The notes under the pieces: generated by a model | Database searches by the model: none | What the model was told of the DNA's origin: nothing | The model's input: only the letters and a program-made list of their open reading frames with translations | Program-made: the position numbers and the translations under genes | In this document: one piece after another, positions 636-3,312 of the stretch | Position numbering within the stretch: the stretch's first letter is position 1 | Layout of the letters: every line of letters starts with the position of its first letter | Source: an uncultured virus (IMG/VR IMGVR_UViG_3300017751_000009) | Lineage: Duplodnaviria; Heunggongvirae; Uroviricota; Caudoviricetes | Strand: one strand, 5' to 3' | DNA: 20,000 bases | Virus record (IMG/VR): IMGVR_UViG_3300017751_000009

Positions 636-657
636 TAAAAAGTTTTTGTTTTGTGAC

Positions 658-1098
658 ATGAGCGTCGTTATTGAGCCGACCGTTGAGTGGTCGCCTGAGA
701 ACATGATTGAGGTTGTCCTAGGAGAACCTGACGATTTTTTAAAAGTGCGAGAAACTCTGACTAGAATCGGTGTTGCATCTCGTAAAGAAAAAAAATTATA
801 TCAGTCTTGTCATATCTTACATAAGCAAGGTAGATATTTCATTGTTCACTTTAAAGAATTGTTTGCTCTTGATGGCAAGAAAGCAAATCTTACTGTTAAT
901 GATGTTCAACGCCGTAATAGAATTACACAACTCCTTGCTGATTGGGGATTAATTTCTGTAGTTGTGGCTGAAATGATTGAGGATATTGCTCCTTTGAATC
1001 AGATTAAAGTTTTATCCTACAAAGATAAAGGGAATTGGGCTTTAGAGACTAAGTATAACATTGGTCGTAAGGTTAAAGTTGAAGGCGAAGAAGGTTAA
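658..1098 (+). CDS. regA: RegA translational repressor (T4-like)
   Basis: Contains DDFLKVRETLTRIGVASRKEKKLYQSCHILHKQGRYFIVHFKELF, the RegA signature. ATG at 658 (MSVVIEP) is preferred over the TTG at 646. Confidence 0.96.
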   Translation: MSVVIEPTVEWSPENMIEVVLGEPDDFLKVRETLTRIGVASRKEKKLYQSCHILHKQGRYFIVHFKELFALDGKKANLTVNDVQRRNRITQLLADWGLISVVVAEMIEDIAPLNQIKVLSYKDKGNWALETKYNIGRKVKVEGEEG

Positions 1099-1104: not shown

Positions 1105-1159
1105 GATCGTCGCTCTTTCGTGCGCGACTCTCTACGACGGATTCGCTACCAAAGTAGAT

Positions 1160-1182
1160 AGGGGGCTTGACGCCCCTTTTTT
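1160..1182 (+). terminator. Rho-independent terminator downstream of regA
   Basis: AGGGGGC-TTGAC-GCCCC followed by TTTTTT. Confidence 0.8.
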
Positions 1183-1195
1183 AATGGTGTATAAT
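1167..1195 (+). promoter_or_regulatory. Sigma70-type (early) promoter
   Basis: TTGACG (1167-1172), 17 bp spacer, TATAAT (1190-1195); predicted start about 1201-1202. Confidence 0.85.
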
Positions 1196-1200
1196 ATGGA

Positions 1201-1277
1201 GGTCAGGGAGGGAGACCACCTTGACTGCGGTACTCCCCTTAGTAGGTTCAGGAGTAGCGGCGATAGGAACCTACTAA
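1201..1277 (+). ncRNA. Putative structured RNA / 5' leader: GNRA hairpin plus H-type pseudoknot
   Basis: GTCAGGG(1202-1208)/CCTTGAC(1219-1225) capped by GG-GAGA-CC. TACTCC(1231-1236) pairs with GGAGTA(1251-1256), interleaved with the 11 bp perfect stem TTAGTAGGTTC(1239-1249)/GAACCTACTAA(1267-1277). It begins at the predicted transcription start. Confidence 0.6.
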
Positions 1278-1349
1278 ATATAATGTCTCAACAGTTTTCG
1301 CTATCGAGACACCTAACGGTACAACCGTAGATTTTTATCTAAAGAATTA

Positions 1350-2384
1350 ATGCCTAACACAGAACGCACCAGAAAAGGTTTTGGCGATATCCTGGATCTC
1401 GAAAATCCACAGTTAAAGAACCTACCCAAGCCTAAGCAAAAAAACGCAACATTCATCAAGTTTTCTTTCCTTGATCTCGATACCGTCGATGAAGAGGATG
1501 AGTATTATTGGAACCTTGCTGTCCGGGATGATCAGAACAATACCTCTCGGATTGAAGCAATGCAAGTTTCATATATTAACTATGGATGGCTTTATAACGA
1601 TTTCCCCCCTTGTATTGGTACTGACAATCGTCCTAGAGACGGTAGGACTCGTATCCTTGCAGCAAAGCGTGCTGGAGAGAGGTGGATTATTGTTGCTATC
1701 TTCTCATACGATGACAACGGTAGTCCAATCACTAGCTACATTTCCAATTCTCTTGCCTGTCAGCAGCGTCCTGCATCCACTGGGGTATGCATTAACGATT
1801 TTATTATGGCAGGGATTGCTTGTGTTAATGCTGGAGAATGCTTGCCAGAGAGATCTGCAGTAGAAGACCTCGTTTACAATGAACTGCAAGCTGAGAGCTT
1901 CTTCTCTCCTCGTGGAGGTGCCATAACCAAGATTGTCAACAAAATCCTTGATGATGTCTTGGAAGAAGGTACATCTGGTGGAATCACTGTTGTTAGGAGT
2001 CGTGAAGATTGGCAAACTTGGTTGGCAAAAGCCGGTTATGTAAAGGGAGATTATATTCTCCTATCGGTTGACAATCCAACTTATGCTATGAGGGCATGGT
2101 GTCAGCACTTGCTTCCACACTTTTCTAAGAACAAGTCCACAGCAACCATCATCCTTTACACCAACGCTAAGACTGGTACTAAAGCTCGGAGGTATATTTC
2201 TGAATTTGCAGTAAACCTCCAGTATTACTACACATCTTCATTTGCTATGGTAAATAGGGCACAGTCTGCTGTAGAGATCAAAGTAGCTGATCCTGCACCA
2301 TACACTATTGCTGGAGCGATCCCTCAGATCCATGACAATCACAACATTAATTCTTTTAAATTGGTAGATATCTCGGACTACTGA
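1350..2384 (+). CDS. ParB/Srx-like N-terminal domain protein (344 aa), function unknown
   Basis: VRDDQNNTSRIEAMQVSYINYGW...PPCIGTDNRPRDGRTRILAAKRAGERWIIVAIF matches the ParB/sulfiredoxin pattern (S..G..P...DGxxR..A...G...I.V). The C-terminal part is not recognised. Confidence 0.65.
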   Translation: MPNTERTRKGFGDILDLENPQLKNLPKPKQKNATFIKFSFLDLDTVDEEDEYYWNLAVRDDQNNTSRIEAMQVSYINYGWLYNDFPPCIGTDNRPRDGRTRILAAKRAGERWIIVAIFSYDDNGSPITSYISNSLACQQRPASTGVCINDFIMAGIACVNAGECLPERSAVEDLVYNELQAESFFSPRGGAITKIVNKILDDVLEEGTSGGITVVRSREDWQTWLAKAGYVKGDYILLSVDNPTYAMRAWCQHLLPHFSKNKSTATIILYTNAKTGTKARRYISEFAVNLQYYYTSSFAMVNRAQSAVEIKVADPAPYTIAGAIPQIHDNHNINSFKLVDISDY

Positions 2385-2499: not shown

Positions 2500-2934
2500 A
2501 TGACCGACCTTACTAAGTATGGTGCGTCTAACATTGACCAATTTTTGGATCGTGTTCATCGCAACAGCATTGGTATGAACGAATACTTTGATCGTTTATA
2601 CTCACTACATGAGACCACTACTAACTATCCTCCCTACAACCTAGTATCCATAAATTCTGTAGAGTCCAGGCTAGAGATCGCCCTGGCAGGGTTTAAAAAG
2701 GCAGAGTTGTTTGTCTACACACAGGATGGCAAACTCTTTGTAGAGGGTCAGAAAGAGGACAAGGAGACCGAGACTACCTATCAGCATAAGGGACTAGCAC
2801 AGAGGTCCTTTACGAGGGTATGGACGCTCTCTGAGGATGTAGAAGTGAAGAGTGTAGAATTTGAGGATGGACTCCTTTCAATATGTCTAGCTAGGATAGT
2901 TCCAGAGCATCATCAACGCAAGGATTGGTTCTAA
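2500..2934 (+). CDS. hsp20: Small heat shock protein Hsp20 (IbpA-like)
   Basis: NYPPYNL, EIALAGF, HKGLAQRSFTRVWTL and FEDGLLSI are alpha-crystallin/IbpA motifs; typical cyanomyovirus position after regA. Confidence 0.96.
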   Translation: MTDLTKYGASNIDQFLDRVHRNSIGMNEYFDRLYSLHETTTNYPPYNLVSINSVESRLEIALAGFKKAELFVYTQDGKLFVEGQKEDKETETTYQHKGLAQRSFTRVWTLSEDVEVKSVEFEDGLLSICLARIVPEHHQRKDWF

Positions 2935-2939
2935 ATATC

Positions 2940-2965
2940 GGGGGGGTTGTTCACCCCCCATTTTT
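2940..2965 (+). terminator. Rho-independent terminator after hsp20
   Basis: GGGGGGT-TGTTC-ACCCCCC then ATTTTT. Confidence 0.75.
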
Positions 2966-2975
2966 GTGGTATAAT
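2947..2975 (+). promoter_or_regulatory. Sigma70-type promoter with extended -10 for the replication operon
   Basis: TTGTTC (2947-2952), 17 bp spacer, TGg-TATAAT (2967-2975). Confidence 0.7.
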
Positions 2976-2997
2976 ACCAAGAGGTAAAAAGCATACT

Positions 2998-3312
2998 ATG
3001 TCTGTTAGAGTAGCCATTATCGGTAATGATCAAATCATTGCTGACATCAAAGAGTTGATTGATCCTGAAGACAAGGCTCGTCAATATATGTTCAACAATC
3101 CATATCGTGTTATCATGCAACCCACCATGTTGCTGAGTGAAGATGCAGGAGAGACCGCAGAAAATACATCCCAAGTATCTCTTGCTACTTGGCAACCACT
3201 CACGCAAGAGACAACCTTTATTGTCAACCCAAACTCGGTTCAAACTATCTTTGAACCAGTTGCTGATCTCAAGTCAATGTACCTGGAGCTAATCGATAAT
3301 GTCACAAATTAA
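2998..3312 (+). CDS. Conserved hypothetical cyanophage protein (small beta-rich, possibly Sm-like)
   Basis: ATG at 2998 (MSVRVAIIG), downstream of GAGG and the promoter; the TTG start at 2947 lies inside the terminator. Shares its pattern with the next ORF. Confidence 0.8.
   Translation: MSVRVAIIGNDQIIADIKELIDPEDKARQYMFNNPYRVIMQPTMLLSEDAGETAENTSQVSLATWQPLTQETTFIVNPNSVQTIFEPVADLKSMYLELIDNVTN

Follow-up and report, generated by a model that had tools for sequence, protein, structure and literature searches.

The 20,000-nucleotide stretch of DNA analyzed here (the window; IMG/VR record IMGVR_UViG_3300017751_000009) comes from a T4-like cyanophage and contains, in this order, regA, an open reading frame (ORF) of 344 amino acids, hsp20 and a long polymerase-like ORF. 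The genes, the promoter, the terminator-like hairpin and the RNA segments delimited below are all on the + strand. Context is provided by regA (646..1098), which matches PF01818 (E 5e-45) and phrog_242, and by hsp20 (2500..2934), which matches PF00011 and phrog_432. The 344-aa ORF (1350..2384) is weakly ParB-like: it has no Pfam or PHROG match over the cut-off, a search for a solved relative found none, and ParB_N appears among its Atlas look-alikes (score 0.94, 147 of 256 features). The pseudoknot-containing RNA that is the subject of this analysis is located between regA and the 344-aa ORF, behind a sigma70-type early promoter (1167..1195). The near-consensus character of this promoter, claimed in an earlier note on the same DNA, is borne out: TTGACG (1167-1172) and TATAAT (1190-1195) are separated by 17 nt and match 11 of the 12 consensus bases. 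The -35 box lies inside an intrinsic-terminator-like hairpin with a T run (1160..1183; stem 1160-1178), a composite terminator-promoter that resembles the PeSL arrangement of other T4-like phages (PMC4122927, which does not treat cyanophages). A further hairpin (1282..1313), outside the pseudoknot RNA, is the leader of the ParB-like gene itself.

Several other structured units punctuate this region. The segment 1096-1183, right after regA, is a separate conserved unit that comprises hairpins, a box resembling a late promoter and, overlapping the -35 box, the terminator; it has blastn matches in S-SM2 and Bellamy and an analog in L660 and L661, two loci that carry relatives of the 344-aa ORF. 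The 2385-2500 segment combines a bidirectional terminator, a late-promoter-like box and a structured hsp20 leader, and hsp20 is followed by a terminator-promoter cassette (2935-3000) that lacks the pseudoknot RNA in the window and is filled with it in at least 14 other loci leading into the same small gene family.

Every pairing that the earlier note proposed for the RNA is present in the window. The RNA starts with a 5' helix, P0 (1202..1225), in which the described G-U pair, A/A mismatch and GAGA loop are all found, but only the closing helix is conserved, the mismatch and the tetraloop being variable and the loop free in length and content. The claim of a promoter-started RNA likewise stands, with the predicted +1 at G1202 rather than at 1201; this G opens P0 and is paired with the invariant C1225. 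A near-invariant U-G linker (1226..1227) leads into the pseudoknot stem S1 (1228..1259; 1228-1236 with 1251-1259), that is, the originally described helix 1231-1236/1251-1256 and its extension 1228-1229/1258-1259 across a mismatch at 1230/1257 that is mostly G-G (G-G 240, C-G 4, A-G 3, G-A 1; n = 248). The extension is backed by covariation, with the pair 1229-1258 being G-C in 186, U-A in 59 and U-G in 3 of the 248 sequences. Because S1 thus reaches 1228-1259, loop L3 spans at most 1260-1266. The second stem, S2, forms 11 Watson-Crick pairs in the window (1239-1249/1267-1277), but the outer ones, 1239-1240/1276-1277, break in most homologues; the conserved stem (1241..1275; 1241-1249 with 1267-1275) has 8-10 bp across the family, with three invariant pairs next to the confirmed single-nucleotide interhelix junction, A1250.

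The block is GC-rich, as noticed originally (GC 56% versus 39% for the window; 46% for the 5' flank). The signal in this single sequence is modest: the nested fold has z = -1.67, and when the 20 kb window was shuffled 200 times with dinucleotides preserved, 8 of the shuffled sequences contained somewhere a pseudoknot with 6 + 9 or more Watson-Crick pairs. What settles the structure is the covariation among homologues. A blastn search detected the RNA in the cultured phages ACG-2014f, P-SSM2, P-SSM5, S-SKS1, S-B43, S-B05, S-H68, RB11-B, S-SCSM2R, SynMITS9220M01, S-SM2 and Bellamy, and pattern scans that left the stems free added at least 120 IMG/VR loci and 117 metagenome loci. After removal of duplicates and one chance hit (L214), 125 sequences were tabulated, 121 of which were aligned; two loci that misfit the pattern used (L008 and L026) are outside this set, and nine chance-like rows of a scan with the 5' side freed were set aside by eye. 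Altogether, 248 distinct sequences from phages and metagenomes contain the RNA; this pooled set was selected with loose pairing filters.

In the 121-sequence alignment, 99.8% of the 2012 cells are paired, and 12 of the 17 pairs show two-sided changes, which occupy 358 cells compared to 90 in shuffles; none of 500 shuffles reached this value, whereas the number of pairs with two-sided changes was matched in 52 of the 500. The changes are distributed over both stems (S1: 8 pairs, 100% of the cells paired, 6 pairs with two-sided changes; S2: 9 aligned pairs, 99.6% paired, 6 with two-sided changes). When the register of the pseudoknot is slid, pairing drops to 21-49%, and in the metagenome set, all seven tested S1 pairs are kept in 106 of 106 sequences. 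Mutual information across the 248 sequences places S1 or S2 pairs in all top ten column pairs and indicates no tertiary pairs beyond these two stems. Thus, the homologues and compensatory changes that had been proposed as a check were both found, and on these comparative grounds, we conclude that the secondary structure of a hairpin followed by an H-type pseudoknot is real. One contig from an RNA library, belonging to a relative, spans 1241-1275 and extends past the predicted start by 18 letters; it is uninformative on start sites and expression.

Invariant bases also occur outside the stems. The dinucleotide UU at 1239-1240 is present in 125 of 125 sequences although it was left free in the search pattern; given that the outer S2 pairs are not conserved whereas these two uridines are invariant, loop L1 is best described as CCUU (1237..1240). 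This loop runs parallel to the invariant GGAA (1266-1269; partners UUC and A1250) and could be the third strand of a major-groove triple helix built of C-G-C and U-A-U triples, both of which are established in pseudoknot structures. The putative triple helix is read from invariance, not from covariation, and the invariance has to be gauged against the search patterns, which fixed CC, C1249, A1250 and G1266-G1267 and left UU and AA free in the IMG/VR scan.

The second concentration of conserved bases surrounds the 5' end. Within L3 (1260..1266; G-C-K-A-Y-A-G), C1261, A1263 and G1266 are constant; in scans with L3 and the 5' side freed, 1262 and 1264 vary, G1260 and U1226 each changed once, and G1227, C1228, C1261 and A1263 never changed. 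Similarly, position 1225 is C in 110 of 110 true matches where it was left free. The linker could form pairs with 1261-1262 that leave G1260 as a bulge, a pairing that lacks covariation support: 1227/1261 are G and C in 248 of 248 sequences, and 1226/1262 are U-G in 208, U-U in 38, U-A in 1 and C-G in 1.

The most unusual feature of the RNA is the fixed position of P0 relative to the promoter. Sigma70 promoters usually start transcription 6 nt after the -10 box, and in 106 of 121 loci and 90 of 105 metagenome loci, the first G of P0 stands at precisely this distance downstream of a TATAAT-like hexamer; in the pooled set, this spacing holds for 201 of 240 loci compared to about 8 per spacing in the shuffled control. 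A -35 box with 5-6 of 6 matches accompanies the 6-nt spacing in 84 of these 106 homologues, whereas the spacer sequence between the -10 box and the P0 G varies. Under the criteria used, 33 of the 240 loci misfit the 6-nt rule, several of these having a spacer of 5 or 7 or a weaker -10 box. This geometry is not a general property of the promoters: among 722 sigma70-like promoters in 11 genomes, just 55 are opened by a G-led helix of at least 5 pairs, and A is the commonest +1 base (256/722). With this spacing, the predicted initial G of the transcript would be base-paired and fixed at a distance of two bases from S1. The free pairs 4 and 5 of P0 are formed in 189 and 183, respectively, of 201 loci, by several pair types. 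Furthermore, the lock is independent of the P0 loop, which spans 12-261 nt, such that the first nucleotide of the predicted transcript would be clamped beside the pseudoknot whatever the loop contains; a script found six further loci that close P0 over inserts of 94-276 nt, the 276-nt case probably being due to chance. The lock also holds when the promoter is inside the upstream gene (for example, L149, L201 and S-SM2). Such sigma70-like promoters, embedded toward the 3' end of the preceding protein gene, were observed in L149, L150, L154, L201, L004, L286 and others, and there, the 5' strand of P0 overlaps codons.

Coding remnants or a further structured RNA can be contained within the P0 loop. 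Three conserved structured inserts of 70-95 nt were observed inside it (in L256/L262, L208/L224 and L253, respectively), none of which matches an Rfam family; the abiF motif (RF03085), considered as loop cargo, matched 0 of 5 records, and its control likewise had no match anywhere.

The genomic neighborhoods of the RNA are diverse. Among the 125 loci, a tRNA lies close downstream in 50, an ATG within 36 nt in 44 and a second promoter in 12, with 14 other cases and 5 truncated ones. The tRNAs (Arg-UCU 40, Pro-UGG 9, Thr 1) follow after 2-6 nt. The 44 start codons, 5-36 nt downstream, belong to 18 protein clusters; there is no terminator, and the spacers are AU-rich, with a Shine-Dalgarno word in one of the 44. 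This listing of downstream genes, one of the checks proposed earlier, does not support the proposed link to the ParB-like gene. Relatives of the 344-aa ORF were compared at six loci: the four close ones carry the RNA, whereas two at 68-69% identity (L660 and L661) lack it and keep the regA synteny, the terminator-promoter and the leader hairpin of the ORF. The existence of filled and empty sites at the same gene, along with the occurrence of the RNA before tRNAs and unrelated genes elsewhere, indicates that the RNA is not the operator of that gene; the ORF is a neighbor rather than a partner, and the comparison shows, at the level of sequence, that the RNA has no fixed downstream partner. Some contexts are particularly compact. 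In ACG-2014f (L001, 2500-2945), a promoter, the pseudoknot RNA, tRNA-Arg, a manA RNA and tRNA-Asn follow one another with gaps of 1-4 nt. None of these tRNAs and RNAs is annotated in the record, and the arrangement suggests that manA likewise is released as an RNA and does not serve as a leader alone. Degenerate tRNA-like remnants occur right after the RNA in L160 and L202. The RNA appears to move among early promoters, perhaps via recombination between repeated terminator-promoter cassettes.

The window contains one copy of the RNA. A model of the RNA (R2) gave a single strong match per genome in 9 complete genomes, picked for having a hit, and none in 7 other cyanomyophages; weak matches in the negative genomes (13-19 bits) were rejected, being devoid of both the structure and the promoter. 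Each genome contains 50-94 promoter-like sites, one of them with the RNA. A strict pattern, which could miss divergent cellular forms, gave one match in 185,579 cellular genomes, on an 832-bp contig of phage-derived appearance. Presence of the RNA tracks the clade of phages with large genomes, S-SRM01 being the exception. Comparison of the gene content of 6 positive and 5 negative genomes, with the S-SM2 ORFs as queries, yielded a single ORF present in 6/6 and 0/5, which reads as epimerase-like by motif, and revealed no co-occurring phage protein pointing to a complex.

The view that the RNA matches no named family is upheld: Rfam 15 has no match at gathering score in the window, no family covers the RNA in 20 homologous loci, and by E-value, the region 1000-1450 shows SNORD39 alone (18 bits, E 0.25), a chance match. 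The RNA resembles the manA (RF01745), wcaG (RF01761) and PhotoRC-II (RF01717) motifs (PMC2864571) in occurring in the same T4-like cyanophages and in the same genome region, and manA, an RNA that assembles into cages in vitro (bioRxiv 10.64898/2026.07.01.735769), also in its placement hard against tRNAs or ~15-20 nt before a gene; it differs from all three in sequence and fold, being much smaller and locked to the +1. In the 20 homologous loci, the manA and wcaG models match neighboring stretches and never the RNA itself. A motif search of the 8 supplementary files of PMC2864571, where gapped alignments can hide matches, and of 4 supplementary files of PMC10690425 found no match, and the RNA may be among the 8,495 unnamed IMG/VR candidates of PMC10690425. 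A full-text search of mostly open-access literature found no description of this RNA. We regard it as an uncatalogued structured RNA family with an unusual transcription-start lock, as judged from comparative analysis.

Three known classes of pseudoknot RNA can be set aside. The ToxI antitoxins are tandem pseudoknot repeats located before a ToxN-type toxin, whereas here, there is one copy per genome and no consistent downstream gene. The HDV-like and theta ribozymes are nested double pseudoknots with P3, L3, P1.1 and P4; here, just 1 nt separates the 5' strand of S2 from the 3' strand of S1, and there is no Rfam match. The T4 gene 32 operator (mentioned in PMC10690425) is likewise an H-type pseudoknot in the leader of a T4-like phage, but the RNA described here precedes neither gene 32 nor any other single gene and carries invariant unpaired bases and the 5' clamp.

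Our preferred reading, which we hold at somewhat less than even confidence, is that the RNA is an early, end-protected, long-lived small RNA of large-genome marine T4-like cyanophages that would act in trans on a host protein. Under this scenario, the host sigma70 RNA polymerase would start at G1202 early in infection, and P0 would form as soon as the first bases fold back, hiding the 5'-triphosphate end beside the base of S1. The pseudoknot with its CCUU/GGAA triple helix would block 3' trimming. Either RNase P, cutting at the neighboring tRNA, or a cleavage within the AU-rich spacer would free the 3' end, so that an RNA of 70-85 nt would accumulate. This RNA could then bind a host protein through its two invariant patches, the triple helix and the 5'-end junction, as a decoy or an inhibitor, candidate targets being the RNA-decay enzymes RNase J and RNase E, RNA polymerase or a defense nuclease. 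The single copy, the site in a tRNA operon beside manA, the second promoters and the empty sites favor the RNA being a product in itself. Because the conserved bases are in stems and junctions, there is no antisense seed, and the combination of seemingly protected ends and two invariant surfaces with the lack of a free seed underlies the reading as a protein binder. The protein-binding role suggested in the earlier note thus survives as the best guess, detached from the ParB-like gene. Anti-Shine-Dalgarno mimicry by the CCUU stretch was considered and rejected since the flanking bases covary in S1. Against the stand-alone reading, in the 44 of 125 loci near a start codon without a terminator, the RNA may stay within the mRNA, and protection alone would not require such strict 5' geometry.

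Two alternative explanations have the RNA act in cis. In the one that we consider unlikely but worth serious attention, the nascent RNA would bind the host polymerase in cis and enable it to read through early-region terminators, as do the putL and putR elements of HK022, which bind the beta' zinc-binding domain and suppress pausing and termination (PMC9378689). The similarities include the size of ~70 nt, an early promoter used by the host polymerase, a two-domain fold with a 5'-proximal helix and a likely triplex; moreover, put can act at distances of 10 kb or more and does not have to remain tethered (PMC9378689), so the single copy, the neighboring tRNA and the indifference to the next gene also fit an antiterminator. 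However, put consists of two stem-loops with a minor-groove triplex rather than an H-type pseudoknot and is present in two copies, one of them, putR, ~270 nt from its start site (PMC9378689). Thus, put needs no exact 5' end, whereas here, a single copy keeps an exact +1 in 201 of 240 loci, even over inserts of 94-261 nt, and 12 of the 125 loci have a new promoter after the RNA. The other explanation, which we find unlikely to a similar or slightly greater degree, is that P0 and the pseudoknot cap one early transcript against decay by RNase J and RNase E, comparable to a 5' stem-loop plus an xrRNA-type brace. Among the non-catalytic models, this one best explains the lock to the +1, both enzymes are present in cyanobacteria (PMC10989914), and 44 of the 125 loci run straight into a gene. 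The xrRNAs of flaviviruses and plant viruses are also compact viral pseudoknots that can yield stable small RNAs, but they are internal to transcripts, downstream of a degradable leader, and their ring fold halts a 5'-3' exonuclease that approaches from the upstream side (PMC6299227); the RNA analyzed here has the conserved pseudoknot but begins at the predicted primary 5' end, with no leader preceding it. A shield also sits poorly with one copy among 50-94 promoter-like sites per genome, with the 50 of 125 loci where a tRNA within 8 nt would be cut off, with the same gene existing with and without the RNA, and with the reported absence of close RppH homologues from cyanobacteria (PMC10989914).

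The remaining explanations appear much less probable. The strict 5' geometry would be best accommodated by a ribozyme that acts on its own 5'-triphosphate, through self-capping or 2'-5' lariat branching, with pppG placed at a nick-like junction next to nucleotides 1261-1263; the invariant bases cluster at this junction, and C1225 is constant although A is the commonest +1 base. We know of no natural precedent for such an activity. In 5'-triphosphate-dependent selections, ribozymes forming 2'-5' bonds have been obtained (PMC1919479), but the 1226-1262 and 1227-1261 pairs do not covary, an S1 of 11 bp would, by our estimate, be hard to bridge with a 4-nt loop, and no purpose next to a tRNA is evident, so we rate this possibility as quite improbable. 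Slightly more doubtful still is a riboswitch aptamer that would bind a metabolite at the triple-helix junction and control the downstream gene. SAM-II, preQ1-II/III, NAD-II, the telomerase pseudoknot and ToxI are all triple-helix H-type pseudoknots, and the RNA shares with these a pyrimidine L1 strand beside the purine run of S2 and a 1-nt junction; the SAM-II, preQ1-II and NAD-II aptamers are also of comparable size and have invariant L1 and junction bases. In contrast to these classes, the RNA has no family match, expression platform, tandem repeats, cognate toxin or consistent gene. The riboswitch-like (SAM-II, preQ1, guanidine-III or NAD-II type) and autoregulatory readings are therefore unlikely: there is neither a terminator nor a Shine-Dalgarno platform, the RNA often lies 2-6 nt from a tRNA, and the downstream features are 18 unrelated protein clusters and tRNAs. 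A sponge that binds a ligand without gene control would be compatible with these observations. As for the ribozyme-like character suggested originally, no known ribozyme model matches, and self-cleavage by a new class that processes phage transcripts seems hardly probable at all. L3 loosely recalls HDV J4/2, and a pseudoknot of 50-80 nt with invariant bases fits the criteria given in PMC10085705; against this, P3, L3 and P4 of the HDV fold are missing, Rfam yields no hammerhead, twister, pistol or hatchet match, there is nothing 5' of the RNA to remove, and the spacer to the tRNA varies between 2 and 6 nt. To readings beyond those listed here, we assign about as little probability as to the riboswitch.

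Phage structured RNAs and triple-helix pseudoknots are kinds already known; what is new is the uncatalogued family and its start lock. It is a small, sharply defined class, so far unannotated in the much-studied phages P-SSM2, S-SM2, S-SKS1 and ACG-2014f, and the strict coupling of its structure to the start of the transcript is unusual and gives clear predictions for a 75-nt RNA that occurs in cultured phage-host pairs. Should the RNA act in trans, it would be an early phage effector of a new, RNA-based kind; should it bind polymerase, put-type antitermination would extend to cyanobacteria; and should it modify its own 5' end, this would be new ribozyme chemistry, giving phages a means of producing nuclease-proof RNAs without protein, including the modules carried inside the P0 loop.

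Another modular RNA absent from the catalogs, which measures ~110-260 nt and combines a variable arm with a closing stem of its own, was encountered in at least 120 IMG/VR loci (L152, L188, L195, L210, L219, L227, L235 and L778-L897) and has no Rfam match. Among the 104 untruncated loci listed, the pseudoknot core stands right behind this RNA in 25 and is absent in 79; in 14 of the 25, the 9-bp closing stem of the second RNA starts at spacer 6. This second RNA is often followed by further structured modules. Finally, a UUCGCUA-like hairpin-loop word recurs in terminators and leaders of the window (1143-1150, 1296-1302 and 2408-2416) and is also found in the P0 loops of L007, L013-L015, L020, L021 and L023.
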